Below, one piece after another: positions 3,180-57,256 of a stretch of DNA of 64,000 bases. The stretch covers positions 1,036-65,035 of the forward strand of contig CAZDLU010000007.1 of the NCBI GenBank assembly GCA_964506725.1. The letters run 5' to 3'. The notes under the pieces were generated by a model, which worked only from the letters and a program-made list of their open reading frames with translations, was not told where the DNA came from and did no database searches. The number at the start of each line of letters is the position of its first letter. Within the stretch, counting starts at the first letter, position 1. The translations under genes were made by a program, and so were the position numbers. The DNA is from an uncultured Rhizobium sp. (GTDB lineage Bacteria > Pseudomonadota > Alphaproteobacteria > Rickettsiales > UBA1997).

Positions 3180-5033
3180 ATGCAAGATATCCCATTCATA
3201 AGACATATCCGCAATTTTACAATAATAACCTTATTGATTTTATTTGTCTTGGCGTTGTGCTTTTATTTGACCGGAACTTTGGTTTTAGTCACTATTACCG
3301 GGCGTTGGGACGTTATAAAAGCCTATTCACATTTGTCTTTAGACAAGCAATTTATTTTTCTTTTTCAAACGCTTTTTACTTATTGGAAATTTTATTTTTC
3401 TAATTACGGCAAGCTTACTCCCACAAGCTATAACGGCTTCACAACGAAATTATGGATAACCACGATTTTGCCTTATGGAATTTTATTTACTTTAGCCTGG
3501 GTTTTCCGCGCGCCCTTGATGGATTGGCGGCCGTTTAAAAAACCGGAATCTATTCACGGTGATGCTAAATGGGCGAGTCCGAAGCAGGTTAAAAAAATGG
3601 GATTGCGTTGTAAATCTGGTGTTTTGCTTGGTATGTATAAAAATAAATTGCTCATCACCGATGGCTATCAACACATACTGCTATTCGCGCCAACGGGTTC
3701 CGGTAAAGGTGTGGGTTTCGTAATTCCTAATTTATTATTTTGGAAAGAATCGGTAATTGTGCATGATATTAAATTGGAAAACTATGAGCTTACATCCGGT
3801 TGGCGTAAAAAACATTTGAAACAAAAGGTCGTATTATGGAATCCGGCCGATCCTGACGGTATTTCTCACTGTTATAATCCGATGGATTGGATTTCCAAAA
3901 AGCCCGGACAAATGGTGGATGACGTGCAAAAAATTTGCAACTTCCTCTTGCCGGAACAGGAATTTTGGCAAAACGAAGCGCGTGCTTTGTTAACCGGTGT
4001 GATGCTTTATTTGGTGGCGGCTGAAGACAAGCCTTGTACGCTCGGAGAGGTGGTGCGAACTCTGCGTAACGATGACGTTGTTTACAATTTAGCTGTGGTT
4101 CTTGACACAATGGGCAAAAAAATTCACCCGGTTTCTTACATGAATATTGCGGCTTATTTACAAAAGCCTGACAAAGAACGTGGTTCGGTGACATCAACGG
4201 CGAACTCGTCTCTCGAATTGTGGGCCAACCCATTGATTGATACAACAACGGCGACCAGTGATTTTAATTTGCACGAATTTAAATTGACGCCGCATACTTG
4301 CTATGCCGGTCTAACGCCTGATAACATTACACGCTTAAAGCCTTTGATGAATATGTTTTACCAACAGGCCGCGGCGTTTTTTACCGCGCATATGCCGCGC
4401 CCGGAAGAAAAATTCGGCGTGTTGATGCTGATGGACGAGTTTCCGACTCTTGGGAAAATGGAGCAATTTCAAGCCGGTATCGCTTATTTTCGTGGTTATA
4501 AAGTGCGTTTGTTTTTGATTATTCAAGATACCGAGCAGCTGAAAGGAATCTATGAAGAAAGCGGTATGAACTCGTTTTTATCAAACTCAACTTATCGCGT
4601 AACTTTCGCGGCGAACAACATGGAAACGGCGAATTTAATTTCGCAATTAATCGGTAATAAAACTGCGACGCAAATTTCTTATAATAAACCGAAATATTTA
4701 GATTTAAATCCCGGTGCGCGTTCATTGCACTTATCTGATACGCAGCGCGCGCTATTGCTTCCGCAAGAGGTTATTCAATTACCTCGCGACGAAGAAATTA
4801 TTTTGATTGAATCGCAACCGCCGATTCGTTGTAAAAAAATAAAATATTTTGCGGATAAAATGTTTAAGAGCCGCCTATTACCGAAGGTTGATATTCCTAA
4901 ACAAGAACCTTACATGCCGGATCATACTAAAAATAGCAAAGCTAATAAAGGCGGAGAGGGTGCGAAAAACGCGGGCTCAGGGGCAGCGGATAAAAAAGAA
5001 GATGATGCAGGTGGTGGAGTTATTGAAGGATAA
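3180..5033 (+). CDS. virD4: Type IV secretion system coupling protein, VirD4/TraG family
   Basis: 617 aa. N-terminal hydrophobic helices, Walker A in LLFAPTGSGKGVGFVIPNLL and Walker B-like MLMDEFPTLG give the overall TraG/VirD4 layout. The C-terminal tail is Gly/Lys/Asp-rich. Confidence 0.9.
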   Translation: MQDIPFIRHIRNFTIITLLILFVLALCFYLTGTLVLVTITGRWDVIKAYSHLSLDKQFIFLFQTLFTYWKFYFSNYGKLTPTSYNGFTTKLWITTILPYGILFTLAWVFRAPLMDWRPFKKPESIHGDAKWASPKQVKKMGLRCKSGVLLGMYKNKLLITDGYQHILLFAPTGSGKGVGFVIPNLLFWKESVIVHDIKLENYELTSGWRKKHLKQKVVLWNPADPDGISHCYNPMDWISKKPGQMVDDVQKICNFLLPEQEFWQNEARALLTGVMLYLVAAEDKPCTLGEVVRTLRNDDVVYNLAVVLDTMGKKIHPVSYMNIAAYLQKPDKERGSVTSTANSSLELWANPLIDTTTATSDFNLHEFKLTPHTCYAGLTPDNITRLKPLMNMFYQQAAAFFTAHMPRPEEKFGVLMLMDEFPTLGKMEQFQAGIAYFRGYKVRLFLIIQDTEQLKGIYEESGMNSFLSNSTYRVTFAANNMETANLISQLIGNKTATQISYNKPKYLDLNPGARSLHLSDTQRALLLPQEVIQLPRDEEIILIESQPPIRCKKIKYFADKMFKSRLLPKVDIPKQEPYMPDHTKNSKANKGGEGAKNAGSGAADKKEDDAGGGVIEG

Positions 5034-7353: not shown

Positions 7354-8637
7354 ATGTTGACAGCTTTTCGCAAATATTCATTTTTTTTAGTGCTTAGTGC
7401 TTGCTGCTTGGCGCTTGGTGAGGCGAGGGCGGATGAGAAACTTCCTTCGTTGGATGAAATTACGGCGGAATTACAGCAAAAAAAAGCTGAAGCTGAGCCA
7501 TTCGATCCGGCAAAAGTTAAGGTTGATATAGAGTCGTTGGGCCTTGATGCTCTTGACGAGAGAGATAAAGCTGGGGAAATAAAAAAAGAAGAAAAACAAG
7601 AAGAGAAGTCCAAGGAGGAAGTAAAAATTGTTCAGCCGAAAGCGCCTGAAAAACCAACGCCAAAGACCAGCAGTGAAACAAAAATAATTGACGATTCCGT
7701 TGAAAAAAAGATTGAAGAAAAAAAACAAGTTGAAGTGATAAAGCCTGTTGCTACAACGTCTGCTGACATAAAAAAGCCAACTGAAAAATACATTAATTCT
7801 GTAAAAAAACAAAATCTAAAAAAACGTTTAGAACAAGAAAAGAAAAGAGAAAGAAGTGCAAAGGAGAATTTAAAAAAGCTGCAAGAACTACGGGCCCAAT
7901 ACTTGATAAAGATTGACAAAAATAAAGAACAAGAAGAATTTTTTGCTACAGAAGAAAAAATAATTCCGCAGCGAAAAACTTTTAGCCAATTTATTTCTGA
8001 TGAGGCTCCTGCAATTCCGATTTTAAACCGCTATCGTACGCAGGATAATTTACACATTCCGGTTATTTTAACTCATAAAGAAAAAATTGATATAATGTTT
8101 GATGCAATCAGGCAGCGCTATGATACCGAATATTTTAATGCTGCTTATAAAAATGTCGAAAATCCAAATGAGATTAATGAAAACGGTGATACGATTTTAA
8201 CTTACGCCATTTTAATTCAGAATTATGGCGTGATTGCTTCGGTATTAGCTAAAGGCGCGGATCCAAACATGCCAAATTCTTTGGGCTATACTCCGGTCAA
8301 TATTGCAATTGAACTTGCCGATAATAGGGCACTTAATTTGCTCGCGGAAAATAAAGCTGATTTAACGAATTATCTTGATGCTTTCGGGCGCAATTATTTG
8401 ATGTATGCGGTGCGTGTTGGCTTTTTACCGGCTGTGGAATTATTTTTTAAAAAAGGAATTGATATAAATGCTATGGATGATGACGGATTCACTGCTTTAG
8501 CCATTGCACACCGTTATAAACGTGATATTATTGTGAAATATTTATTGCAAAATGGTGCTAAAACTTGGATCGAAAAACCTTATGAACCTGAAAAAAAATC
8601 TTTAATAAAAGAATTGGAAAATAGATGGAAAAATTAG
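7354..8637 (+). CDS. Ankyrin-repeat protein with signal-peptide-like N-terminus and Lys/Glu-rich linker
   Basis: N-terminus MLTAFRKYSFFLVLSACCLALGEARA, then ~200 aa of K/E-rich low-complexity sequence. C-terminal ankyrin repeats follow: GDTILTYAI..LAKGADPN, LGYTPVNIAIE, GRNYLMYAV, DGFTALAIAHRYKRDIIVKYLLQNGAK. Confidence 0.8.
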   Translation: MLTAFRKYSFFLVLSACCLALGEARADEKLPSLDEITAELQQKKAEAEPFDPAKVKVDIESLGLDALDERDKAGEIKKEEKQEEKSKEEVKIVQPKAPEKPTPKTSSETKIIDDSVEKKIEEKKQVEVIKPVATTSADIKKPTEKYINSVKKQNLKKRLEQEKKRERSAKENLKKLQELRAQYLIKIDKNKEQEEFFATEEKIIPQRKTFSQFISDEAPAIPILNRYRTQDNLHIPVILTHKEKIDIMFDAIRQRYDTEYFNAAYKNVENPNEINENGDTILTYAILIQNYGVIASVLAKGADPNMPNSLGYTPVNIAIELADNRALNLLAENKADLTNYLDAFGRNYLMYAVRVGFLPAVELFFKKGIDINAMDDDGFTALAIAHRYKRDIIVKYLLQNGAKTWIEKPYEPEKKSLIKELENRWKN

Positions 8638-8833: not shown

Positions 8834-9805
8834 TTGCTTGTTTTTGCTATTGTATTTTTTTCCATTAAGCCAATCAAAGCACAAATAGAAAGTCTTTATG
8901 ATAATAATGCTGGTGCGGTTGCGGGCATTAATTCATTGATGTCGGCTGTTGCAAGTAATGATTTAAACGGTGTTAAATTTTTTGCCAAAGCGGGCAGGGT
9001 ATTGATAAATCAAAAAAATTTGGGAGGTGCTACTTCACTGCATCTGGCATGTCGCGAAGGCAATTTTGAAATTGTGAAAGTTCTAATTGAAAATGGTGCC
9101 GATGTTAATGTTGTTGATAATGAAGGCTGGACACCATTGATGCGCGCAGCTTTAGCGGGTAACCAAAATATTACGGCATTGTTACTTGATCAAAAAGCTA
9201 TAGCAAGCAAAACCAATTTAACCGGCGAATCCGCCATAATTCACGCGGCTTTATCCAATTGCAACGAATGTTTAAATTTCATGTTTGAGAAATTTGATTT
9301 TATTCAAAACATGGATATCAGGCTTTTAAAAGAGCAATTGACGGAAGCTTTTGTTATTGCGCGCAACCATGAAAATGAAGTAATGCAAGGTTTGCTTACA
9401 AGCTATTTGGATCGTGTTATTAAAGCCGAGCCTTTAATTAAAGAAAAAGACCAATCTACTCCGCCTATTCCGTCTTTAGAAAACAAAGTATTTAAGATTA
9501 AGAAGGATGAAACAGAAGAGGAGGTTGTTTACACCAAGCCGATTGTGCCTATAGCTAATCCTAATGCGGTTTTTAATGAATCAATATTGCCGGTAACAAA
9601 ATCTTCTGCGCAGTCACCAATCCCCATGATTGTTAAAAATAATGAAGGTAATAACACTGTTGTGAAGAAGTTTAAATTTATATCAGGACCCAGTGGACAG
9701 GTTGTAACTAGTGTGCCAAAATATAAGAAAAAATATAAAGCAGTGGTGAAGCCTAAAACTGTTTACAAATTTAAAGGCGATTGTTATTGCGATAAAAAAC
9801 AGTAA
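8834..9805 (+). CDS. Ankyrin-repeat protein
   Basis: Ankyrin repeat consensus is clear: GATSLHLACREGNFEIVKVLIENGADVNVVDNEGWTPLMRAALAGNQNITALLLD. The track start is a TTG with no in-frame ATG upstream, so the start is uncertain. The N-terminus is short and hydrophobic; the C-terminal third is Pro/Lys-rich. Confidence 0.8.
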   Translation: MLVFAIVFFSIKPIKAQIESLYDNNAGAVAGINSLMSAVASNDLNGVKFFAKAGRVLINQKNLGGATSLHLACREGNFEIVKVLIENGADVNVVDNEGWTPLMRAALAGNQNITALLLDQKAIASKTNLTGESAIIHAALSNCNECLNFMFEKFDFIQNMDIRLLKEQLTEAFVIARNHENEVMQGLLTSYLDRVIKAEPLIKEKDQSTPPIPSLENKVFKIKKDETEEEVVYTKPIVPIANPNAVFNESILPVTKSSAQSPIPMIVKNNEGNNTVVKKFKFISGPSGQVVTSVPKYKKKYKAVVKPKTVYKFKGDCYCDKKQ

Positions 9806-9850: not shown

Positions 9851-10010
9851 TATGTAAAATTAAATATTATTTTTTTAAAGGTTATGTCAGCAAAAAATAC
9901 TAATACTAAAACAATAAAAGTTGCCCCAAGTATGTAAAATTAAATATTATTTTTTTAAAGGTTATGTCAGCAAAAAATACTAATACTAAAACAATAAAAG
10001 TTGCCCCAAG
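9851..10010. repeat. Exact 80-bp direct tandem duplication (2 copies: 9851-9930 and 9931-10010)
   Basis: Read directly: tatgtaaaattaaatattatttttttaaaggttatgtcagcaaaaaatactaatactaaaacaataaaagttgccccaag occurs twice back to back with no mismatch. Each copy carries the upstream AT-rich leader, the ATG and the first 15 full codons of the downstream ORF. Confidence 0.95.
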
Positions 10011-10749
10011 AAGTAGTGAAGATAGTGGATTTAGAGGTGTTGACTATATTGTAGAAAATGCCGCTCCACAGCAACCTAGTATTCTTAGAAGAGTATTTGG
10101 CCAAGGAGGTGTAAATATAACAACTCGTCTTGTGACAATAATTTCTTCTCTAGCTGGTGCGGGATGCTTTTCGGTGGCAGGTTATTTTGGATCAGGAGGA
10201 AGTGTAGAAACTGCTGCAGAGGCTGCTGGACTAGCAACCGAATATGGTGTAGTGGGAGCTATGATGGTAGTAGTTGCATTATCTTCAGAGGCAGGTCGAG
10301 CTTACCGTAGATATAGAGTTAATAATCAGACTGTTAGTCCTGATAGTAATGCTTCTGCACAAGGTAAAACTAATGTGCATCAGCAAACTAAGGAGACAGA
10401 GGCTGCCATTACGGTTAAAGTTGAAGAAATTGTGGTTGAAGAAAATGCTCACCCTTCCCCAACTTCTAATTTATCTCCAACATCTCCGCTTTCTCAATCA
10501 AGCGTAGTTAGTAATAAGCCATTACTTAAAACAAATGATATTAGAAAAACAAATGATATTAGACCCGGTGATAGAATCGGTGCAAGAAGAGTGACCTTTT
10601 CATCACCAACCCCGCTTTCTCCTTTGTCAAATTTAGCTTCGACAGATATTCCTGGCTCTGCTCCTCAAATTGATCATGAATCAAAAGATAATGATGATGT
10701 GGTTAAAAAGATGTTTGGTGATGTAGAAGAAATTGAATTCAAAAGGTGA
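9964..10749 (+). CDS. Hypothetical protein with Gly/Ala-rich membrane segment and Pro/Ser-rich tail
   Basis: 261-aa ORF. Gly-zipper-like hydrophobic stretch IISSLAGAGCFSVAGYFGSGGS...GVVGAMMVVVALS. Ser/Pro-rich region PSPTSNLSPTSPLSQSS. In-frame 18-bp tandem repeat at 10528-10563 (KTNDIR x2). No family recognised. Confidence 0.6.
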   Translation: MSAKNTNTKTIKVAPRSSEDSGFRGVDYIVENAAPQQPSILRRVFGQGGVNITTRLVTIISSLAGAGCFSVAGYFGSGGSVETAAEAAGLATEYGVVGAMMVVVALSSEAGRAYRRYRVNNQTVSPDSNASAQGKTNVHQQTKETEAAITVKVEEIVVEENAHPSPTSNLSPTSPLSQSSVVSNKPLLKTNDIRKTNDIRPGDRIGARRVTFSSPTPLSPLSNLASTDIPGSAPQIDHESKDNDDVVKKMFGDVEEIEFKR

Positions 10750-25127: not shown

Positions 25128-26488
25128 TGAAAAAATTTATAGTCTACGGCCTTGGCTTTTCCGGTATTTCAGCCATAAAATTTCTAGCAAAAAATAATGA
25201 AGTAATTGCGACAGATGATAATGAAAAAGCAATTATTGATGCGCAAAAGAAAGTCAATTTATCACAAGTAAAATTTTTAAAACCGGATGAAATTGAATAT
25301 GATGCTAACACGACAGTCAGTTTTGCTCCCGGCATTCCATTATATTTTCCTAAGCGTCATAAAATATTAGAAAAAAAAGTTGATCTTGCTTGCGACATCG
25401 AAGTTTTTTACAGAAATAATTCAAAAAATAATTTTATCGGAATCACCGGAACTAACGGCAAATCTACAACAACGGCACTTACCGGCTTTGTTTTAAAGGA
25501 ATTGGGAATTGATGTTGAAGTTGGCGGAAATATTGGTGTGCCTTGTTTTGATTTGCCTGCGGAAGAGAAAAAAACTTATGTTTTTGAAATGTCGTCTTAC
25601 CAATTAGACTTACTTTCACAGACTCATTTTCACATAGCATGTCTTTTAAATATAACTCCTGATCACATTGACAGACATGGCTCTCTGGCTGGTTACATTG
25701 AGGCAAAAAAAAGAATTTTTAGAAACCAAAATGAAAATGATTTTGCATTGATTGACGTTGATAATGAAAATTCACGTACGGTTTTTGAAGAGTTAAAAAA
25801 TGATAAAAATTTTAAGGCAAAATTAATTCCGATTTCGACATTAAAGCCGCAAGATTCAGGAATAGCACTGATCGATGGCGTTTTATTTGATGGAATAAAT
25901 AATTTAAAAACTGAACTAAAATCAAAATTTTTAAAAGGAAAACATAATGAACAGAATATGGCTTTTGCTTATGCTGTTACTATGTTGGGTTTTAAATTTG
26001 AGGCTGCAAAAATAATTGAAACCATAAAAAAATTTAAAGGTTTACGTCACCGCATGCAATTGCTTGGCGAAGTTAATGGTATAAAATTTATCAACGACAG
26101 TAAGGCAACTAATGCGGAATCAACAGAGCATGCATTGCGTGCTTATGATGGCATTTTTTTAATTTTAGGCGGAAAACCAAAAGATGGTGGAATCGAAATT
26201 TTAAAACCTTATTTTAAGAAACTTATTAAAGTTTACTTGATCGGTGAAGCAAGCGAAGAATTCGCTAAAACACTAAGCGCAGAGCAAGTTGATTTTGAGA
26301 AATGCGGCAATTTGGAAAATGCCTTTAAAAAAGCATTTTTTGATGCAAAAAATAATAGCTTATCACAAAAAAACATTTTACTATCGCCGGCTTGCGCATC
26401 TTTCGACCAATGGAAAAATTTTGAAGAGCGCGGAGACTATTTCTGCAAGCTTTTTGATGAATTATCTAAAACCGAAAATCAAAATTGA
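25127..26488 (+). CDS. murD: UDP-N-acetylmuramoylalanine--D-glutamate ligase
   Basis: Mur ligase P-loop GITGTNGKSTT, DSKATN and LLSPACASFDQW motifs. 453 aa. Confidence 0.93.
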   Translation: MKKFIVYGLGFSGISAIKFLAKNNEVIATDDNEKAIIDAQKKVNLSQVKFLKPDEIEYDANTTVSFAPGIPLYFPKRHKILEKKVDLACDIEVFYRNNSKNNFIGITGTNGKSTTTALTGFVLKELGIDVEVGGNIGVPCFDLPAEEKKTYVFEMSSYQLDLLSQTHFHIACLLNITPDHIDRHGSLAGYIEAKKRIFRNQNENDFALIDVDNENSRTVFEELKNDKNFKAKLIPISTLKPQDSGIALIDGVLFDGINNLKTELKSKFLKGKHNEQNMAFAYAVTMLGFKFEAAKIIETIKKFKGLRHRMQLLGEVNGIKFINDSKATNAESTEHALRAYDGIFLILGGKPKDGGIEILKPYFKKLIKVYLIGEASEEFAKTLSAEQVDFEKCGNLENAFKKAFFDAKNNSLSQKNILLSPACASFDQWKNFEERGDYFCKLFDELSKTENQN

Positions 26489-29400
26489 TCCTAAAGGTTT
26501 GGTAAAAAACTTAACCGTTTGTCTTGCCTTAATTTTTGCTACTTCACTAATCTTTTTTTCTCCAATAAGTCACTCTGATGCTCTTCCGGATTGTGCAGTA
26601 TATTCAGGAACGCCGAACCCGGGAGTTAATTGCCTTTATTTAGGAAAGCCGCTTTGTTCAACTTTAAACGTTTCACCACAACCGCGAGTTAATTGTGCCG
26701 ATTTAATTGATTTACCGCTTTGCTCCGATATTGATAATCCGGCAAATATTTTAACAAATAAAAATTGTGTTAAAAAATGCAGTGATTCATCTTTTAATAA
26801 TCCTGATCCGACTAAGGTGCGTGGTGTAGATTATGCGATTCATAATAAAAATTGCATAAGGTTTTGTGATGAAGCGACTACGGAAGGAGTAACTCCGAGC
26901 TCGACAAATTGTGTACAAAAAAAATGTTATCAATTAAATACTTCAGTTACTCCGGATGCAACTTCAGCATCGGCAAATTGCACAATAACGCCGTGCAACC
27001 TACTTACGCCTGATGAATTAAATGATACCAGATTTGATGATAGTAGCAAAAAATATTGTGACGGTTCGGCAAAATGCTATACTTTTACTAAAGCGCAATT
27101 GCCTTATTTAAAGCTTAGGGCTACTAATACTATGTGCAAAATACATGATTGCACGCCCTACCCTGTTGCTTCGCCGCCAATTTGTGGTGTTGATGATGTT
27201 GTAAATATTACTAACAAAGATGCTAGTGAGACAGGATATTCCTCGGTTTATATAGAAAAAATAAACGCCGGTTTACCGCTTGATAATAATACGATTTGTA
27301 CTCCCGTAATATGTAAACCGGTGGTGCAAAGACAATATCGTTGCACTAATTCTTCAGGAACAATAGTGGGAGATAGTACCGATACCACGCCAAATGTAAA
27401 TTGCGATGCTAGTGGCGGTGGACATGTTTGTTCTGCGATTAATATGTGTTATAAAACAATTGATTGCAATAAGCCGGAGAACAGCTCGCAAGATGAATGT
27501 GCAACTTCCATATCAGATAGCGATGCTCCTCCGGAAGATAGTTTTGAAAGCACCCTTAATACTTGGTTCTATAGACCAAAACCCATGGATAAAGCTTTAA
27601 TAAGTAGTTCTACCGGAATATTGCGCAATATGGAAAGCGGGCTTTGTTATACTTCAGACCAAATGGATGAATTTGAACCGGGAGGATTTTTAGAAATTTT
27701 AGGAATTAATTTAGGATATTTTCACTCATTTATTTTGCCGGGACATAGTACTTCCGGTGGCATGTGCAGCGCTGATCATGTGGGCTCGCGTGGCAAAGGC
27801 TATATCTATCTTTGCGGTACTGACGGACTTTTATATAATAGTATAAGTGAACATAGCGGTTTTCAAAAAGGGTATGTCAGAAGTGTTTTTACTGAAGGTG
27901 ATGCTATACATAAAGTTACTTTTTGTTTACGTTTTAAAAATGCTATGAGGCCAGATGCGGCAGGATCCGGTGAGACATGCGGCTCAAGAGAATGCGGTGT
28001 AAGCTGTGCATTTGGCAGTTGCACGCAAGCTTGCGGTTATGATATTTGCCGCGAACTAACTATTACTGAAAAAAATTCGCAAGATTGTATGATGGGAAAT
28101 GATATCTTTGGTGGCGGCGATAAAAGTTGTATGACAACAGTTGATACTTATGTACGTTTGCGGGCTGTGGGCTATAAAAATAAAATTTGCGGATTCGTAG
28201 ATTCAAAAGGTCAATTTGCCTATAATCCAATGTTTTTTGATGGCAGTGAAACTCTTGAAGATGGTCAATGTATTTCCGGAGTAAAAAATACCGATGGCAG
28301 TTGTAACGGTAAAAATACTAATGACAGCGAAGAAGTTGCAACGAAATTTCGCACTATTTTAAAAATTCCTTATATCCAGAGCAATCAACCAAGTGATGAC
28401 GCGCAAGGCTATTTAACGCGCGATGGTAGGCTTTTTAACAAGCAAGAATGTACCAACATTGCCTTGCGTGTAAGACCTCCAAGACTCTATAATTTAGCTA
28501 ACGTTCAAAATTCTACCAAGCTATTTTCGCCGCCTTTATATATTTTAAACGTGCGCCAAAAAAGAGGTGGAATTATTTCAAATCCACTCAGTAGCGCTGA
28601 TACTTATGGCCCGACTGATTTTTATTATCCGGAAATGGAAATAAAATTTGGTACTTCGACACAAAAATTAAGTTTAGGACTTGGCTTTACCGGCTATGAA
28701 GACGAAGATCATGCTGATTCTGAAAGTTTCCACACCGTTACAACAACTGCCGGTACTATAACTTATTCCGTAGAAATTTTTGTTAGAAAAGAATATGGCG
28801 CTCTTGATCGCATGCCGAAATTTTGTTTGTACCGCAAACAAAAAAATTATAGTGGCGAATATTTAGCGCCGGTTCAAGTTGCTTGCGTGGTACGAAATTA
28901 TCCTGAAATAAATAATAGTACGAATTTAGAAAAAATAATAATCGATCAAAATTCTAACGCTAATTACGATGATGCTAAAATTAAATTTAAATATTTTTAT
29001 GGTAGTGGTACGGATTGTGCTGCCGGTAGCAACCATTGCTCAGATCAAGTAACATTGGTAAATGACGTTCAGGCGACTCCGGCTTGTGCTTCAGATGTTG
29101 AGAAATATCAGGTTTGCGCGCAAAGGGAAGAATGTAGCAAGTTAAATATTGAGTGTATAAAAAATGAAGTGAATTTGCAGCAGGCTAAAGCTAATGGCGC
29201 TCCAACCGGTTCGTACGAGGCTATCAGAAATGATTGCCAGCAAAATTTATTGCCGATTTGCAGCAGAAAAAAAGGCATTGCGCCAAGTGATAGCGCTACT
29301 TTATATAATCAAAATCCTGATAATTCTGCGGGAAGCGCTACAGCCTACGGTTGGTTTAATGAAGTATGTTTGGTTTACGGTTTTGAAACTAAATTAAAAA

Positions 29401-32321
29401 CTGTTTTAGCTAACAAAACAATCGATGGCGTGAAAGGTAAATGCGTAATTGACGAGGCTAACAGTCCTTACATTACCGATGGAAATGCTTCAACAAATTG
29501 TGATGCCGGCGGTAAAGCGCCGAACTGCTTATGCGTTGAAGCCGTTAGTGGTTTTACTTCTTACGACTCAGCAACGCAAGAAATCAGAAAACAAACATTA
29601 CGTGAAGCCGGATTGTGTGTTGATATGCCAACTCCAAAATTATGTTCTCCTATCGACTATAACCAAAGTCCAAATAGCGATAGTTCTGATGCCGAATATG
29701 TTTTATATTCTCTTGGCAAAACTTCTTACAACCCTCCCCCTCCCGCTTCTACACCTTATAATTCTTCTAGCAATGTGCATTATTCACACTTTCTGCGCAC
29801 TCAAGGTTCTGTTGGTGATACCTCGATTTCAGGTTTTGTTAGCCATGGTGAATTTGCTGTTGGTGTTGTTGGAATGACAAATGTTGAGGGTACTTGTACC
29901 GGTTTTTGGATGAATAAAAATGGTAGCTTAAAACCGAAATTAAATTGCACGACTGATGGATGGGTTAACGCTGCCGACCCTTCTTTAGCCTATCCTCTCA
30001 ATGATTGCCAAAGATATTCTTGCTCAGTAATTTCAACAACCGGACCGGATGCTTCCGGAAATTATCAGGGAAATTATGGCGCGTCTGAAACTGGCGAAAC
30101 TAAAGGAGCAAGCAATGGATTTGCTACTTGGCCAGCTCATACTTTAACTTCTGATTACGCCGAAATTGAAACTGCTGTAAATTGCATTGCCGGCTTTAAA
30201 CGCACAGGAAGCACGGCTTATACTTCTTCCGGAACCAGCCTAAGTGGTTCTGCCTTAACGCAAGCTGCAATTAACGGCACAATTGATCATTATTCCGGTG
30301 GTTCTCTGCCGCAAAGATATTGTAACCAGTTAGGACAATGGCAAGAGCCAACTAATGTGTGCGAGAGGATTTCTTGTCCGGCAATAACAGCTACAATGCT
30401 TGGAAGACCTACAGGCAGCTCTGGCAATAATGCTGACGGAATTCCTAATTCAACAATTTGGGATAATTGGAAAGCTTCCGGTGGCGCAATTTTTCCTTCG
30501 GTAAAAGCTTCGCGCAGTAATGCCAGAATACAAAGCGAATCAATTTCTTATGGTACTTGCGAAACTGATCAAACCAGCAATTGGGGTTTGGGATTCTTTA
30601 ATGCCGGAACCGCGCCTTCGCGGACCTGTGACTATAACGGCAATTGGGGTCCGGTGCAAAATCCTTGCGTTTCTTATTGTAGCGAAATTACTGATCCACT
30701 CGCAGCACCGGAACGTGATGGTTACGCGAAATGGCCACAAGGCTCAGTTCCAGTGGGAGAAAGTGAGTCAATTATTAACTCTAGTAGCTGTGCTCCTGGC
30801 TACATTCCGTACCCTTACTCGCCTTACAAAGATAATCACGGAAATTTCATCGTTGATAAAACAACAGGTGATGCAATTACTTGGGATGGTGTTCTAACTA
30901 AAAATACAACTCGCGACGGTACCAATCCACGCCGCGCTTGCCAATCAATTGTTACCGTTGGTGGTGGTACTGCTAATATTTGGACAGGCACTAATTCAAG
31001 ATGTGTTAACAAATGTCCGGGATACGATCCTTCAGTGTTAGTTTCTAATCCTGATGGCGATCCGGGAGATCCAAGACTTGGCGTTGGTCGCACTTCTCAC
31101 TCAACTGCTGCCGGCACGGAAATAGTCAACTGGCCGGATACAACTTTTGGAACTTATGCTTATGTCTATGGTCATTTTGATCCCAACAGCGTTACTTTAT
31201 CAGCTGCTGATTTTCAGCCGGGAAAAACCAGCAATTATTATGTTTTAAGACGCTATTGTAATAGTGATGGTACATGGTCAACTCCTGAGCCAATTTGTAT
31301 GGCCGGTGGTGGCAAAATAGGTAATGCTACTTATAGCGTTACTTCGTCAGTTTCCGGGGTTACCGATACTGCGCCATTTACCGGTGATCACAATTCATTG
31401 CCGGTCGGCACTACGCAATTAACCGGAACTTGCGTTGCCAACTATTGGACTGCAAGCCGCGGAACTGCCGCCGCACCAAAAAGAAAGTGTTCTTATGCAT
31501 CAGGAAATAGTTACATTGATCGGGTTTATTGGGAATTAGATGCAACTACTCAGGATTGCGAGCTAACTTCCTGCCAAGCTAAAACTATAAACAGCGATGG
31601 TCTTAGAACCGGAGCTACCAATGTTACTGCCGGGAATGTTACTGATAAAAGATATTTAAATTGTGCTTCGGCTTCTGAAGCGCCTCTATCAGCAAGTCTT
31701 CCGGCCGGAGTTCCTGCAACCAGTGGACCTTATGTAGCATGTGGTACGGACGGTAATTGGGGAGCTATACAAAATGCCATAGCTTGTCAAAGAGCTTGCA
31801 ATATTCCATTATCATCAGTTTCAGGTAATCGTGTTAACGCTTATGACTGTGGTGACGGATATGGTTATTATTCGGCATCAATTTATGGCGATAGCTATTT
31901 TGTTAAAAATTATCCGCATGGTTCATCAGTAAGTTTTGCTTATTCCGACTTCTGCCCGGACGGAGCTGACGCTTGCAATATGCATTCTTACTATGTAGGA
32001 TGCAGCGACGGAACGCCAATTATTCGTTATAGCGATGGTTACGATATCAATGCTGATAATGATTATGGTTGGTGTAACAAATACCAAATATATGATTCAA
32101 CTTCTGGCACTTGGTCTGAAGGTACCGATCCGGATGACGGTAGCAATCGTAATAGGTTGGTTTTCCGTAATGGTTCTACTAAGTTAAGCAGTACTGTTAC
32201 AGAACCCGACCAAGTTACGCCAAAAACTAATCTGGATGGCGATGATACTGCATATTTCTTTTTGAATTATATTGATAGCAGTGGCGCTACCAAGAAAATG
32301 GTAATAAAACGTGATCCATAA
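26457..32321 (+). CDS. Giant secreted cysteine-rich protein (~1954 aa) with C-terminal CCP/Sushi-like modules
   Basis: Uninterrupted 5.9-kb ORF. I start it at ATG 26457 because the track start 26289 would overlap murD by 200 nt. [42 protein letters not shown] reads as a Sec signal peptide. The mature part has about 90 Cys by my manual count, is rich in N/S/T/G/D, and has no further hydrophobic helices. Confidence 0.85.
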
Positions 32322-32332
32322 AAAATAAAATT

Positions 32333-32800
32333 ATGATTTCAATTATAATGGGCTCAAAGTCAGATTTTGCAACAATGCAACATGCTTGCAAAATTTTAGA
32401 TGACTTTAAACTGGAATATGAGGTAAAAATTATCTCAGCACATCGCACACCCGACCGACTTTACGAATTTTGTGAAAATGCAAAATCTCGTGGTATAAAA
32501 ATCATCATTGCTGGCGCGGGCGGCGCAGCGCACTTACCCGGAATGACTGCCGCCATGACTGAAATTCCCGTCTTGGGAGTTCCTGTTGAAAGCAAAAGTT
32601 TAAAAGGCCTAGATTCACTATTATCAATTGCCCAAATGCCGGCCGGAATTCCGGTTGCAACACTTGCAATTGGCGAAGCCGGTGCAAAAAATGCTGCACT
32701 ATTTGCTGTAGCAATTTTGGCCTTATCAAATGAAAAACTTGCTAAGAAATTGGAAAAGTTTAGAAGTGAGCAAACTGCTGCTATAAAACTTAAACCTTAA
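32333..32800 (+). CDS. purE: 5-(carboxyamino)imidazole ribonucleotide mutase
   Basis: [18 protein letters not shown] and [14 protein letters not shown] signatures. Confidence 0.95.
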
Positions 32801-49588: not shown

Positions 49589-50848
49589 TCATTTTCGCAA
49601 AGCACACTTAGCTTCAACAATATATTTATAAGTCACCAATTGCTCCAAACCAACAGGTCCGCGAGCATGCATTTTTCCTGTCGCAATTCCAACTTCAGCA
49701 CCCAATCCAAATTCTCCGCCATCCGCAAATTGTGTAGAAGCATTATGCATTACAATTGCTGAATTTACTTTTTTTAAAAAAGTTTCTGCCGCTTTTTTAT
49801 CTTCGGTAATAATACTTTCAGTATGCGAAGAACCATAAATAGCAATATGTCTTATGGCCTCGTTAATATCTTTGACAATTTTTATAGAAATTATTTTATC
49901 TAAAAATTCCGTATAAAAATCTTTTTCTTCCGCTAATTTTATTCTTTTATCAAGCGTTACCGCTTCTTTATCGCCACGCATTTCACATCCTGCTTTACTT
50001 AAATCATCAGCAACTAAGGGCAGAATTTTTTTAGCAATTTTAGCATCAATAAGCAGCGATTCCGTAGCTCCGCAAATACCAACGCGTCGCATTTTGGCAT
50101 TCATTAAAATTGCGCGCGCTTTTTTAAAATCACATTTTTCATGCAAATAAGTATGACAATTTCCATCGAGATGGCGAAAAAGCGGAATTTTGGTATGTTC
50201 CATCACTGCCTTAATCAATGACTTGCCGCCGCGCGGAATTACTACATCGATATGTTCTTCCATTTTCAGTAATTCATTCACATATTCGCGCTCAACATTT
50301 TCTACTAAAGTCACGGCATTTTTGTCAACGCCGAATTTTTCCAAAGCTTTGCGAAAAATTTCAACTAATGCTTTTGCGGAATTAATGGAATCAGAACCGC
50401 CACGTAAAATCACGGCATTACCTGACTTAAGAGCAAGGGCCGCAATGTCTGATGCAACGTTCGGGCGCGACTCAAAAATTGCCAGCAACACTCCCAAAGG
50501 CGTGGTAATTCTTCTAATGTGCAAACCATTTTCACGCTTTACATCATAAAGAATTTTATTGGTCGGATCATTTAATTTAGCAATTTCTTTAACTGCATTT
50601 GCTAAAGAAATAATTCTGGCTTCATCTAAAATTAAACGATCAATTTTAGCCGTTTCAAGCTTGTTTTTCTTTGCCGCTTTAACATCTTTGGCGTTTGCTC
50701 TAATTATTTTTTCGCTACTTTCCTTAATTAATTTTGCTGCTTCCAATAAAATTTTATCTTTAGTTTTAGAATCAAGATTAGCAATTTCTGTGCTGGCTTT
50801 TTTTGCAGCAAGACAAATTTTTAGAACTTTGGATTTTATTTCGCTCAT
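49589..50848 (-). CDS. proA: Glutamate-5-semialdehyde dehydrogenase (gamma-glutamyl phosphate reductase)
   Basis: IFESRPNV, ILRGGS, active-site Cys context VGICGATESLLI, and VMHNASTQFADGGEFGLGAEVGI. Confidence 0.93.
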   Translation of the reverse strand: MSEIKSKVLKICLAAKKASTEIANLDSKTKDKILLEAAKLIKESSEKIIRANAKDVKAAKKNKLETAKIDRLILDEARIISLANAVKEIAKLNDPTNKILYDVKRENGLHIRRITTPLGVLLAIFESRPNVASDIAALALKSGNAVILRGGSDSINSAKALVEIFRKALEKFGVDKNAVTLVENVEREYVNELLKMEEHIDVVIPRGGKSLIKAVMEHTKIPLFRHLDGNCHTYLHEKCDFKKARAILMNAKMRRVGICGATESLLIDAKIAKKILPLVADDLSKAGCEMRGDKEAVTLDKRIKLAEEKDFYTEFLDKIISIKIVKDINEAIRHIAIYGSSHTESIITEDKKAAETFLKKVNSAIVMHNASTQFADGGEFGLGAEVGIATGKMHARGPVGLEQLVTYKYIVEAKCALRK

Positions 50849-52296
50849 AGAAAATTAATTATTTTAAACAAAAGCGGTATCGCCAAAGCCAACAATAGCA
50901 AGAGTCCAGTTAAAATCAAGGCAGAGTCGCTTTCTATTAATTTTATTAAATTCAAATCTTCGCTATTTCGCTGTGGCGCTTCTTTTGACAATAAAGGCAA
51001 AGCCACTTTCAAAGTAAAAATTATCAGGCTGACAAAATTGATTAAACATACAAAAGCGCTAATGAATAAATGTTGCTTTATAATGATTTTTAACAAAAAG
51101 AATTTTGTCAATAACCCTACAGCCGGAGCAATTCCCGCTAAATTGGCTATGGTAAAAATAAATAAAAAAGAATTTGTTCTTAGCTGATAAAATAAGCCTT
51201 GCGGGCTTTTATTTTCAGCCTTGTTAAGAAATAAAATAAAATTGGAAATAGTGATAAAAGCCAATGTTATAGAAAATACGAATGAAGTTGAAGGAAGGTA
51301 AATATTGGCTTTAGAGAAGTTTGCTAAAATTAGCGTTTCAAAAATTACCAATAAAAACTGCTGGAAAAAAAGATAGAAAAAAGATGATTTTAGATTTTTG
51401 CTAAATATTAAAAATATTGAGGCGATAAAAATATTTAATAAAAAAATTATTTCAAAAAAGTGTAAACCTATTTTAGAAATGATTTCCGAAATCCAAGTGA
51501 AGCCGAACAAAGTGGATGTAAGCTTGAGAAAGGTAAATAAACTGCTTAAAGAGTATCCGATAAAAAATAAAATATAGGTAACTAAAGTATCAAAATTTAA
51601 GTTGCGATAGATAATGTAAAATGGCGCTAAAGCCGAAAGAAAAAGTGCGGCAAAATATAATAAAAATAAAAAAGCATATTTTAAATTAACTTCCGTCATT
51701 ATGCCGCCTTTGGTAAAATCGGCAAAACCGTTGAATTTGTAGGTAGCGATGATAGCAAAAAGTAAAATTATCGATTCAAGATAAAGCAAAATCGTAAATA
51801 ATTGCGGCATTCTGGTATCTTTTTTATGCAAAAATTTTATAGCAAAAAAATGATACAAAATTACTAATGCATTATAAAAAAATAAAATTGTAAAAAGGTT
51901 CTTGGAAGCAACGAGTACAATGTTAAAAGAAAAAATTAAAATTGTAAAAAAGCGAAATTCATTAATATTTTTTATTAAATTTAACTGCATGTTTCTTGTT
52001 GAATAAAAAGTAAAAATCATCCACAAAAAACCCAACAAAAACAAAAAATAACAAGTTAATTTATCAACGCTAAATCCAAGTGCAACCGCGCTCTGCATGG
52101 CTTCTATCAGCATCAATTCATTATTGCCCTGCCCTAAACTTCTATATAATCCGCATAAAATTGCTAAAAATAATACCGGGAAAATTTTATTAATTAAATT
52201 AGTAATGCGCCATAAGCCGTTGAAAGCCTTAAATGCAAAGCAATTTGCAAAAGGAATCAAGATAAGAATAAAAAGTAAAAATTGCGTTTGGCTCAT
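50845..52296 (-). CDS. Divergent antiporter-like polytopic membrane protein (NuoL/M/N - MrpA/D superfamily-like)
   Basis: 483 aa, ~14 hydrophobic helices, extreme F/L/I bias. GFSVDKLTCYFLFLLGFLWMIFTFYS fits the family pattern L.VD.LS..F.LL......YS. In FFTILIFSFNIVLVASKNLFTILFFYNALV the position of the usual TM5 Glu is Asn. ATGA overlaps link it to both neighbours. Confidence 0.45.
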   Translation of the reverse strand: MSQTQFLLFILILIPFANCFAFKAFNGLWRITNLINKIFPVLFLAILCGLYRSLGQGNNELMLIEAMQSAVALGFSVDKLTCYFLFLLGFLWMIFTFYSTRNMQLNLIKNINEFRFFTILIFSFNIVLVASKNLFTILFFYNALVILYHFFAIKFLHKKDTRMPQLFTILLYLESIILLFAIIATYKFNGFADFTKGGIMTEVNLKYAFLFLLYFAALFLSALAPFYIIYRNLNFDTLVTYILFFIGYSLSSLFTFLKLTSTLFGFTWISEIISKIGLHFFEIIFLLNIFIASIFLIFSKNLKSSFFYLFFQQFLLVIFETLILANFSKANIYLPSTSFVFSITLAFITISNFILFLNKAENKSPQGLFYQLRTNSFLFIFTIANLAGIAPAVGLLTKFFLLKIIIKQHLFISAFVCLINFVSLIIFTLKVALPLLSKEAPQRNSEDLNLIKLIESDSALILTGLLLLLALAIPLLFKIINFL

Positions 52297-55861: not shown

Positions 55862-57256
55862 ATGAAATTAGCCCTAAAAAATGATGAAATTCTAGCGCAA
55901 AACAGTTCTTTTTTAACAAGCTTTTCTGATGCTTGTTTTAATGAGTTCGGTGAAGAAAATTTCGGTAAGTGGCTATCAAAACTTGAAATTGTTCTTGAGT
56001 CAGAAAGCGAAGTTATTTTTTCCGCTCCTTCTAAATTTATACGCGATTGGATTATTCGTGAATTTGTTGAAACAAAAAAGTTAATTAAGTTGGTAGCAAA
56101 TATAAAACCGCAGGTAAAAAAGCTTGCAGTTATATATAAAGCAAAAACTTGTGAAGAAATTTTGCCGACAAAAACTACGGAAAAAGTTATTAGCATCTCT
56201 AAGCATGATAATGTTTTTACTCTTGGAACCGAATTAAATCCGCGTTACACCTTTGAAAATTTTATCTCGGTTAAATCGAATAAACTAGCAGCTTCAATGG
56301 CAAAAATTGCTGCCGGGGTCGATGCTCAAATCAATCTTTTTGATGATAAAATTCCATTATTTATTCATGGTGCTGTCGGCATGGGAAAAACTCACCTAGC
56401 ACAAGCAATTGCTTGGAAGCTAAAGGAGTTTAACAAAACTAAAAAAGTCGTTTATTTGTCAGCTGAAAAATTCATGTATCACTTTGTGCAATCAATCCGC
56501 AGTAATGATGTGATGAGCTTTAAAGAAAAAATGCGCTCAATTGATGTTTTAATTGTTGATGATGTACAATTTATCGCCGGCAAAGAAAGCACTCAGCAAG
56601 AATTTATGAACAGTTTTAATTCACTTGTTGAAGATAATAAACAAGTGGTTTTGGTTTGCGATCGCTGCCCTTCCGCCCTTGAAAATATTGACGAGAAGTT
56701 AAAATCACGCATTACCGGTGGTATGATCGTTAACTTTAAAGCTCCTGACTATCGTGATCGCCTTGAAATTTTAAAACATAAAGCGCAATTGATGAATCAG
56801 GAAATTAATGAAGCCGTTCTTAGTTTGATTGCCGAAAAAATTACAACCAACGTGCGTGATTTGGAAGGAGTTTTAAAAAAATTAATTGCCAATAAAGTTA
56901 TCCTAAATGAAGAAATTACTATTGAACTAGCGAAAACATTGCTTGCCAGCTATATTAAAGCTTCCGATGCCAAAGCGCCTACCGTTGAAAAAATTCAAAA
57001 AACCGTAGCTAATTTTTATGGCATAAAAATTTCCGATTTATCGTCATCAAACCGTGCCAGGTCTATTGCTAGACCAAGACAAGTTGCCATGTATTTAGCA
57101 AAAATAATGACCACTGAAAGTTTGCCAAAAATTGGAGAGAAATTCGCTAAAAATCATGCAACGGTAATTCATGCGGTAAAACTTGTGCAGGAAATGATGA
57201 ATAATGACCAAAAATTTTCGCAAGAAGTTAAAGACTTAGAAGAAAAGATTAGATAG
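55862..57256 (+). CDS. dnaA: Chromosomal replication initiator protein DnaA
   Basis: AAA+ Walker A GAVGMGKTHLAQAI, Walker B LIVDDVQFIAGKESTQQEF. Domain IV: RPRQVAMYLAKIMTTESLPKIGEKFAKNHATVIHA. Confidence 0.96.
   Translation: MKLALKNDEILAQNSSFLTSFSDACFNEFGEENFGKWLSKLEIVLESESEVIFSAPSKFIRDWIIREFVETKKLIKLVANIKPQVKKLAVIYKAKTCEEILPTKTTEKVISISKHDNVFTLGTELNPRYTFENFISVKSNKLAASMAKIAAGVDAQINLFDDKIPLFIHGAVGMGKTHLAQAIAWKLKEFNKTKKVVYLSAEKFMYHFVQSIRSNDVMSFKEKMRSIDVLIVDDVQFIAGKESTQQEFMNSFNSLVEDNKQVVLVCDRCPSALENIDEKLKSRITGGMIVNFKAPDYRDRLEILKHKAQLMNQEINEAVLSLIAEKITTNVRDLEGVLKKLIANKVILNEEITIELAKTLLASYIKASDAKAPTVEKIQKTVANFYGIKISDLSSSNRARSIARPRQVAMYLAKIMTTESLPKIGEKFAKNHATVIHAVKLVQEMMNNDQKFSQEVKDLEEKIR

Follow-up and report, generated by a model that had tools for sequence, protein, structure and literature searches.

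RESULTS

A giant exported protein carries a tandem array of Sushi-type modules

The window analyzed here is a stretch of 64,000 nucleotides (nt) from contig CAZDLU010000007.1 (assembly GCA_964506725.1), which is labelled as an uncultured Rhizobium sp. but is classified in the Rickettsiales. It contains a gene for a giant, cysteine-rich protein that is predicted to be exported, the C-terminal third of which consists of a tandem array of seven modules (M1 to M7) of the Sushi/complement control protein (CCP) superfamily, probably of eukaryotic origin and with an inferred role in contact with eukaryotes. Membership of M1 to M4 and M7 in the superfamily is firm, as judged from sequence profiles and predicted fold; M5 is probably a derived Sushi-like module, and M6 is a marginal one. 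Divergent modules of this type had been proposed in an earlier note that was made by reading the sequence without database searches, and the proposal is supported by four independent lines of evidence, namely, Pfam matches, predicted structure, a profile search of an entire protein library, and profile-profile comparison.

The open reading frame (ORF) spans 26289..32321 of the plus strand, with the ATG at 26457 as the probable start codon; residue numbers used here run from the ORF start at 26289, not from this ATG (Table 1). Translation from this ATG yields 1,954 amino acids (aa), a sequence identical to that of the database protein P0001. The seven strings running from the third cysteine (C3) through a tryptophan to the fourth (C4), from which the array was originally recognized, and five shorter motifs were all found in place in the plus-strand ORF. 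In contrast, the array starts ∼250 nt upstream of position 29880, where the earlier note had it begin (C1119 lies at 29643). The note also counted a single module without a cysteine, whereas there are two such modules, with M5 devoid of C2 and M6 of C1, and it closed M7 with C1833, a residue kept in only 27% of the homologs; C1837 is the invariant one.

Table 1. Features of the giant-protein gene, with residues numbered from position 26289
Feature	Position	Strand	Residues	Details
Giant-protein gene	26457..32321	+	1,954 aa	Cys-rich, predicted exported; from the ORF list and translation
Signal peptide or signal anchor	26457..26582	+	42 aa	Read from the sequence; layout kept in the homolog consensus
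N-terminal/central orphan region	26583..29630	+	∼1,016 aa	Near-invariant Cys; repeated N-C...C motifs
Sushi-type array, M1-M7	29631..31802	+		C-terminal third of the giant protein
Module 1	29631..30011	+	1115-1241	Cys 1119, 1203, 1220, 1240
Module 2	30012..30365	+	1242-1359	Cys 1245, 1299, 1345, 1358
Module 3	30366..30671	+	1360-1461	Cys 1363, 1424, 1447, 1460
Module 4	30672..31007	+	1462-1573	Cys 1464, 1501, 1551, 1572; long variable C2-C3 loop
Module 5	31008..31301	+	1574-1671	Cys 1576, 1657, 1670; no C2
Module 6	31302..31562	+	1672-1758	Cys 1715, 1734, 1757; no own C1
Module 7	31563..31802	+	1759-1838	Cys 1762, 1792, 1818, 1833 and 1837
C-terminal tail	31803..32318	+	1839-2010	Beta-rich; poorly conserved

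The cysteine and tryptophan frame is conserved among homologs

A database search retrieved 136 relatives, none of which is annotated as anything beyond "hypothetical protein." Apart from the identical sequence, these share 32 to 44% identity with the window protein, and most are 1,820 to 2,070 aa long. Conservation was assessed in an alignment of 115 full-length homologs with 33 to 46% identity. The module cysteines are 99 to 100% conserved (93 to 100% for the four cysteines each of M1 to M4 and M7), and the tryptophan that follows C3 is 92 to 100% conserved in five modules (W1225, W1351, W1453, W1565, and W1663) and 84% conserved in M7 (W1824). The equivalent position of M6 is mostly Phe or Leu, so that the tryptophan between C3 and C4, presented as invariant in the earlier note, holds for M1 to M5 and M7 but not for M6. 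A second tryptophan, between C1 and C2, is invariant in M2 to M5 (residues 1281, 1394, 1482, and 1615), and the modules retain the G-[FY] motif after C2. The linkers from C4 of one module to C1 of the next are 3 to 4 residues long in nearly all homologs. The loop insertions and the tail differ strongly from one homolog to another.

Four copies of the motif C-x(2,5)-G-x-W-x(4,20)-C are present, compared to 0.11 to 0.18 expected from shuffled sequences (maximum of 3 in 2,000 shuffles), and a looser pattern that joins C3..W..C4 to a linker and the following C1 occurs 6 times, compared to 0.4 to 1.1 expected. The C3-C4 spacing is 12 in M2, M3, and M5, and the C2-C3 spacing is 12 to 16 in the shortest homologs, including some with 12 in M2; these values and the linker lengths agree with those of 16 canonical CCP reference modules. 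The modules were correctly noted to be longer than canonical ones, although the ∼80 to 100 aa given for them has to be widened: at 80 to 127 aa, the window modules depart from the canonical length and spacing (∼60 aa; ∼25-32 / 13-15 / 10-16) because of loop insertions that enlarge the C1-C2 and C2-C3 distances, with C3-C4 remaining canonical in M2, M3, and M5.

Family models recognize Sushi-related domains in the array

The Pfam gathering scores are 20.7 bits for Sushi (PF00084), 27 bits for Ephrin_CRD (PF25599), and 26.2 bits for HRM (PF02793). Ephrin_CRD is the only Pfam model passed by the window protein (32.9 to 34.7 bits over the whole protein, with the best stretch at aa 1297 to 1358), and this score is the sum of weak stretches; M2 alone, where the match covers C2 to C4, scores 18.3 bits (E = 0.0025). 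The C-terminal 873 aa scored 32.9 bits against Ephrin_CRD, with E = 8e-4 for HRM and E = 0.16 for Sushi. The C3-W-C4 end of M5 is matched by HRM (E = 2.3e-4; 21.9 bits, below the cut-off of 26.2) and by Sushi (E = 0.064).

The module regions of 42 homologs were scanned in the same way, with Sushi counted at E < 0.01. Ephrin_CRD was found in 14 (best E = 1e-9), Sushi in 13 (best 5.7e-6), and HRM in 4. Apart from these, Crystall alone recurred, in 2 homologs, where it corresponds to a loop insertion. Three full-length homologs pass the Sushi gathering score (P0111 with 29.2 bits, P0102 with 25.7, and P0043 with 25.4), and these matches map to the positions of M7 and M2. For example, the M7 ortholog in P0111 has the canonical length of 60 aa and matches the Pfam Sushi model over its full length (1-56/56), and the M2 of P0102 that reaches the cut-off is free of the ∼30-aa insertion between C2 and C3. 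The Pfam check suggested in the earlier note had a divided outcome, with the window protein below the cut-off and homologs above it. The N-terminal 1,020 aa of the 42 homologs, used as a control for cysteine richness (5.7% Cys), yielded no recurring Pfam family, and EGF and similar, commoner Cys-rich repeats were not retrieved by the family searches.

A hidden Markov model (HMM) was built from 16 canonical CCP modules of beta2-glycoprotein I (beta2-GPI), DAF, factor H, and VCP and was checked against the PDB. Among the 115 homologs, it matched M7 in 22, M2 in 15, M3 and M6 in 3 each, and M5 in 2 at E < 0.01, with no such match for M1, M4, the tail, or nine N-terminal control windows; weaker matches to M3 were present in 79/115. 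Comparison of module profiles with canonical CCPs by hhalign gave probabilities of 83.8% for M2, 82.6% for M7, 31% for M5, 7% for M3, 2.7% for M4, and <1% for M1 and M6, with reversed controls of at most 0.3%. Thus, neither hhalign nor the CCP HMM detected a direct canonical CCP signal in M1 or M4. A profile of M3 searched against the PDB matched only the cysteine-rich domain of EphA2, in all cases nonsignificantly.

The nearest relatives are repeats of protist receptor kinases

A profile of the module region, built from 14 sequences, was searched against 1.84 billion representative proteins (E ≤ 0.001) and returned only 187 matches. Most of the best matches are either members of the family or extended forms of this protein. 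The nonfamily matches that were examined (P0192, with E = 2.5e-38; P0210, with 2.3e-24; and P0214, P0215, P0217, P0218, P0227, and P0211) have 6 to 14 separate matching stretches each, with E values from 2.5e-38 to 1e-11. Pfam assigns to these proteins HRM (down to 1.4e-60), Sushi (down to 5.6e-28; 97.5 bits), and Ephrin_CRD, and in P0210 and P0217 also fn3 and a C-terminal Tyr/Ser-Thr kinase domain. Their contigs are eukaryotic and intron bearing, with split PEPCK_GTP, mitochondrial-carrier, and Hus1 genes, and also encode a tetraspanin, ribosomal protein L14e, and separate kinase exons. Uncultured microbial eukaryotes encode receptor kinases of this kind at L056 728-5542 and 10001-14695, L058 5115-9779, and L059 5126-12128, the two genes in L056 being arranged in tandem.

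These proteins also connect to known Sushi proteins. P0192 matches a hypothetical protein of Blastocystis (1.8e-155) and molluscan SVEP1-like Sushi proteins (1.9e-65, 98% coverage), and its sequence alone retrieves factor H CCP1-4 (8.9e-7), a CR1-like protein, and beta2-GPI from the PDB. The set of 98 eukaryotic modules (median, 53 aa) has the consensus.Cpa.....a.Wp.t.ag..a.GtC..Gy.G.ptR.C...G.W....npC. The A-x-W-P element of this consensus explains the second invariant tryptophan of the bacterial modules, as seen in NGFATWP of M2, YAKWP of M4, and VNWP of M5.

In hhalign comparisons with the eukaryotic module, probabilities were 95.7% for M1 (9.2e-9, 45 columns), 97.1% for M2 (5.4e-11), 97.4% for M3 (9.1e-12), 95.4% for M4 (1.9e-8), and 96.1% for M7 (3.5e-9); reversed controls reached at most 0.5%, and the canonical CCP itself matched the eukaryotic module at 91.5% (8.5e-7). 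The remaining two modules came out lower, M5 at 69.6% (4.2e-5, 43 columns) and M6 at 46.9% (2e-4, 19 columns), so that profile-profile comparison, another of the checks proposed at the outset, favors five of the seven modules. The description of the modules as eukaryotic in type also stands in part: the nearest relatives are eukaryotic, but they are protist receptor-kinase repeats and not complement regulators, which the earlier note named among the proteins rich in this signature. The architecture of those kinases is not shared, given that Pfam finds neither fn3 nor a kinase in the window protein.

A CCP-like fold is predicted for M1 to M4

M1 to M4 (459 aa) were modelled with AlphaFold2 from an alignment of 50 sequences and no templates, giving a mean predicted local distance difference test (pLDDT) score of 88.1 and a predicted template modelling (pTM) score of 0.78. 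The top 50 Foldseek matches of this model in the PDB are almost exclusively multi-CCP proteins and ectodomains of Eph receptors. The best example is beta2-GPI (1qub; E = 1.9e-4, probability of 0.82, 333 aligned columns), and others include Crry, FXIII-B, PAPP-A, CD46, factor H CCP1-4, C1s, and CD55; probabilities of the top CCP and Eph sushi matches are 0.82 to 0.87. According to DSSP, each module begins with a beta bridge at C1 followed by an insertion, the A-x-W strand, and strands around C2, and continues with a hairpin, a second insertion (helical in M2 and M3), the C3 strand, the tryptophan, and C4. The model thus predicts the CCP beta-sandwich for M1 to M4. The model from M5 to the end of the protein has a pLDDT of 76.7.

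Individual modules show insertions and losses

The departures from the canonical frame differ between the modules. In M1, a long insertion, irregular or helical, comes before the Sushi-like core, which comprises approximately the last 60 aa. In M2, the chain is extended by insertions behind C1 and, between C2 and C3, by a helical insertion of ∼30 aa. In the homolog P0118, C1 and C3 of M2 have been lost together, and this joint loss is a single hint, read from sequence, of 1-3 pairing. In M4 of P0016 (aa 1493 to 1531) and P0028, the C1-C2 loop contains a beta/gamma-crystallin-like insertion; the matching site in the window is at ∼30756-30779 (aa 1490 to 1497) and comprises 8 residues. M5 and M6 together have six invariant cysteines. 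The spacing from C1670 of M5 to the cysteines of M6 is near canonical, and C1670 may serve as C1 of M6, pairing with C1734.

The rest of the giant protein lacks recognizable domains

The giant protein has ∼90 almost invariant cysteines. Its N terminus, read directly from the sequence, opens with a basic N-region that leads into ∼20 aa of hydrophobic sequence. A lipoprotein was considered and rejected, given the poor lipobox and the lack of conservation of C78, and an autotransporter was rejected because no barrel domain was found. The repeated N-C..C motifs of the orphan region lie at aa 100 to 410. This region has no recurring Pfam family in the 42 homologs, no NCBIfam match, and no PDB match, its profile retrieving nothing from the PDB at E ≤ 10. 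The tail is modelled as beta strands with low-confidence loops, with no family match in Pfam and no fold match in Foldseek. NCBIfam gave no match for any part of the giant protein.

The giant gene occupies a conserved slot between murD and purE

The giant gene overlaps the end of a murD-like gene by 32 nt (26457-26488), and purE begins 12 nt past its stop codon (32321-32333). These distances suggest cotranscription with housekeeping genes; a scan for promoters and terminators around the giant gene yielded nothing better than shuffled sequences. The order SLT (minus strand), MlaD, DUF2155, rpe, murD, giant gene, purE is kept in most of 54 loci, at 30 to 45% protein identity, and the same architecture and murD-giant-purE slot are found in >40 genomes. 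The giant gene is single copy and core in the clade. The GC content is 0.447 in 30001-32000, compared to ∼0.35 for the window, and this rise fits the Gly-, Ala-, Pro-, and Trp-rich composition encoded by the module region.

In other lineages, the slot between murD and purE is occupied by versions of 3,600 to 4,300 aa (P0171, P0173, P0174, P0175, P0177, P0179, and P0194). The P0173 version is located at L060 6001-17115. Both P0171 and P0173 contain stretches that resemble the SUEL (galactose/rhamnose-binding) lectin, with scores of 24.6 to 26.9 bits, below the cut-off of 31.4.

The related loci, taken from one-genome-per-species collections, all come from metagenome-assembled genomes (MAGs) labelled Rickettsiales, Alphaproteobacteria, or Proteobacteria, with lakes and groundwater as source habitats. 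Several MAGs (L007, L008, L011, L006, L031, and others) bear implausible labels, such as Rickettsia typhi, Rhizobium sp., and Lentimonas sp.; the content of their loci fits the Rickettsiales-like clade. One homolog is encoded on a 1.09-Mb contig.

Elsewhere in the window, a VirD4-type coupling protein of a type IV secretion system (T4SS-DNA_transf, E = 2.4e-140) is encoded near two ankyrin-repeat proteins (3180-5033, 7354-8637, and 8834-9805). The combination of VirD4 and ankyrin proteins is typical of host-associated Rickettsiales. Ordinary metabolic genes are also present in the window. The clade is probably eukaryote associated. The cumulative GC skew has its minimum at ∼48 to 52 kb and dnaA lies at 55862-57256; therefore, the replication origin may lie inside the window. 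For two ORFs (9964-10749, 261 aa, and 50845-52296, 482 aa), Pfam returned nothing at E ≤ 1e-5, and Rfam gave no match in the window.

DISCUSSION

A likely scaffold for contact with eukaryotes

The array of Sushi-type modules probably functions as a binding scaffold for contact with eukaryotes. Under the mechanism that we envisage, the giant protein would be exported by Sec, and ∼45 cysteine pairs would then be oxidized in the periplasm. The modules would fold as disulfide-stapled beta-sandwiches and pack into a fairly rigid stalk, on which the variable loop insertions would be displayed as binding surfaces. The protein could thereby recognize or adhere to a eukaryotic cell or its ligands, possibly as a mimic of a host receptor ectodomain. 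The modules themselves were probably acquired from a eukaryote early in the history of this bacterial clade.

Several results weigh against the interpretation of the array as Sushi-type modules that contact eukaryotes. In the window protein, Pfam Sushi scores only 12.8 to 14.1 bits (E = 0.064 to 0.16), and sequence-profile searches of the PDB, with either the full-length family or the module region, returned nothing at E ≤ 10, the null part of the profile checks. The Foldseek E values of the M1 to M4 model are modest (∼1e-4) and its TM-scores are low, the latter because the query comprises four domains with insertions. The model from M5 to the tail retrieved no CCP protein from the PDB, its matches being mainly GFP barrels at E ∼ 0.1; this is noise, so the fold of M5 to M7 is judged from sequence profiles. 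Finally, the gene lies, as in an operon, among housekeeping and cell-envelope genes, a setting that would suit a role in the envelope equally well.

This last point leads to the alternative that survives best, to which we assign a substantial minority chance: the Sushi-type identity of the modules would stand, but the protein would act internally as a structural part of the periplasm or envelope, for example, as a spacer or scaffold linked to the maintenance of peptidoglycan or the outer membrane. Such a role would suit the overlap with murD, the conserved block from SLT, MlaD, and DUF2155 through rpe and murD to the giant gene and purE, and the single-copy, core status of the gene, as well as the presence of a Sec-type signal only, with neither an autotransporter barrel nor any other outer-membrane secretion domain found by Pfam or NCBIfam. 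However, the conserved gene order includes the unrelated metabolic genes rpe and purE and therefore may not reflect a common function. The modules have their nearest relatives in extracellular receptor ectodomains, the loops and tail vary strongly, as is typical of surfaces under diversifying pressure, and the enlarged orthologs carry the SUEL-lectin-like stretches, albeit below the Pfam cut-off.

A more specific version of the binding-scaffold interpretation is speculative and less likely than not. The ancestor of this small-genome, Rickettsiales-like freshwater clade could have captured ectodomain repeats of a protist receptor kinase, fused them to a giant Cys-rich protein, and kept the product as a core gene. 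The array would then imitate the host receptor ectodomain or act as its decoy, or else bind the same ligands.

Convergence, in which a Cys-rich beta module mimics the Sushi pattern without common ancestry, might be read from the position of the window protein alone below the Pfam Sushi cut-off, from module lengths up to twice the canonical one, and from the failure of the family profiles to match the PDB. Against this, HMMER links the modules, at E values from 2.5e-38 to 1e-11, to proteins with strong Pfam scores for Sushi, HRM, and Ephrin_CRD; hhalign does so at 95 to 97%, with reversed controls of at most 0.5%; the Sushi gathering score is exceeded by orthologous modules that have the canonical length; and neither EGF-like repeats nor matches to the Cys-rich N-terminal part were retrieved. 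Because both steps, from the bacterial modules to the protist repeats and from these to metazoan CCPs, are significant, convergence is very unlikely.

The GC content of 0.447 at 30 to 32 kb and the eukaryotic module type might also indicate recent eukaryotic DNA, brought in by a fresh horizontal transfer or an assembly chimera. This has next to no probability: the ORF is single and uninterrupted, with a bacterial N-terminal part, the GC content fits the amino acid composition, and the same architecture and slot recur in >40 genomes at 30 to 45% identity. Conserved synteny as a core gene indicates that the gene is old and vertically inherited and rules out a recent transfer or chimera. Equally negligible is a regulator of complement activation (RCA) akin to poxvirus VCP or factor H that would shield the bacterium from animal complement: although the fold matches include factor H, CD46, Crry, and CD55, this candidate was rejected because it misfits the ecology (freshwater and groundwater MAGs) and the nearest relatives (receptor-kinase repeats of microbial eukaryotes, not RCA proteins), and the likeness to RCA proteins is limited to the fold and the Cys frame.

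Relationship to known Sushi-type domains

Sushi/CCP modules are considered characteristic of the extracellular proteins of animals. The bacterial modules share with the Sushi/CCP/SCR domain (PF00084), as found in factor H, beta2-GPI, CD46, Crry, and SVEP1, the four-Cys frame, the tryptophan between C3 and C4, the G-[FY] motif after C2, the tandem arrangement with linkers of 3 to 4 residues, and a C3-C4 spacing of 12. They differ in length (80 to 127 aa compared to ∼60), in the extra A-x-W-P tryptophan between C1 and C2, in the loss of one cysteine each from M5 and M6, and in that the window copy is under the Pfam Sushi cut-off.

The closest relatives found are the protist receptor-kinase repeats (P0192, P0210, P0214, P0217, and P0218; Blastocystis sp. 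WA158_005587), with which the bacterial modules share the consensus.C-P-A..a.W-P....G-T-C..G-[YF].G.P-T-R.C...G.W....N-P-C, the second tryptophan, and the short linkers. The protist repeats, in contrast, are compact (median, 53 aa) and occur in sets of 6 to 27 ahead of fn3 and an intracellular kinase, whereas the bacterial protein has no kinase, fn3, or transmembrane segment after the array and begins with an orphan part of 1,000 aa.

Two other eukaryotic domains show partial likeness. The Eph cysteine-rich domain (PF25599), which includes a sushi subdomain, is linked to the array by the Pfam match to C2-C4 of M2 and by fold, but the bacterial protein lacks an ephrin-binding domain and an EGF-like part, as well as fn3 and a kinase. 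HRM, known from class B G protein-coupled receptors (PF02793), has a Sushi-like, disulfide-stapled fold, matches M5 weakly, and gives the eukaryotic intermediates their strongest Pfam label. The HRM frame has six cysteines. This frame is absent from the window modules, and the score is under the cut-off. No curated bacterial family covers the giant protein, and the profiles place its modules nearest to an unnamed, two-Trp subtype.

Precedents for pathogens and symbionts with host-type modules include VCP/SPICE of poxviruses and the ankyrin proteins of Rickettsiales and Legionella. VCP has four canonical CCPs, a recent host origin, and a known complement target; the bacterial array differs in being old, core, and enlarged. 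In the literature searched, no paper was found on Sushi modules in bacteria or in Rickettsiales, and neither Schon et al. nor the Deianiraea papers mention these MAGs or such a protein.

Implications for an uncultured Rickettsiales-like clade

The array places an enlarged, two-Trp variant of the Sushi module in a 6-kb core gene of an entire uncultured Rickettsiales-like clade. It exemplifies the tolerance of the CCP frame to insertions of loops and domains, and the protist HRM/Sushi repeats, which link to metazoan CCPs as well as to this bacterial family, bear on the age and spread of the fold. For the clade itself, the giant protein is a concrete, testable candidate for the means by which these bacteria make contact with eukaryotes and provides a sequence handle for locating their eukaryotic hosts. 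If the modules were indeed captured from a protist receptor kinase and act as a mimic, the protein would represent a conserved device for host attachment or manipulation of a kind not described in bacteria, and it would serve as a marker pointing to the eukaryotic hosts of the clade.

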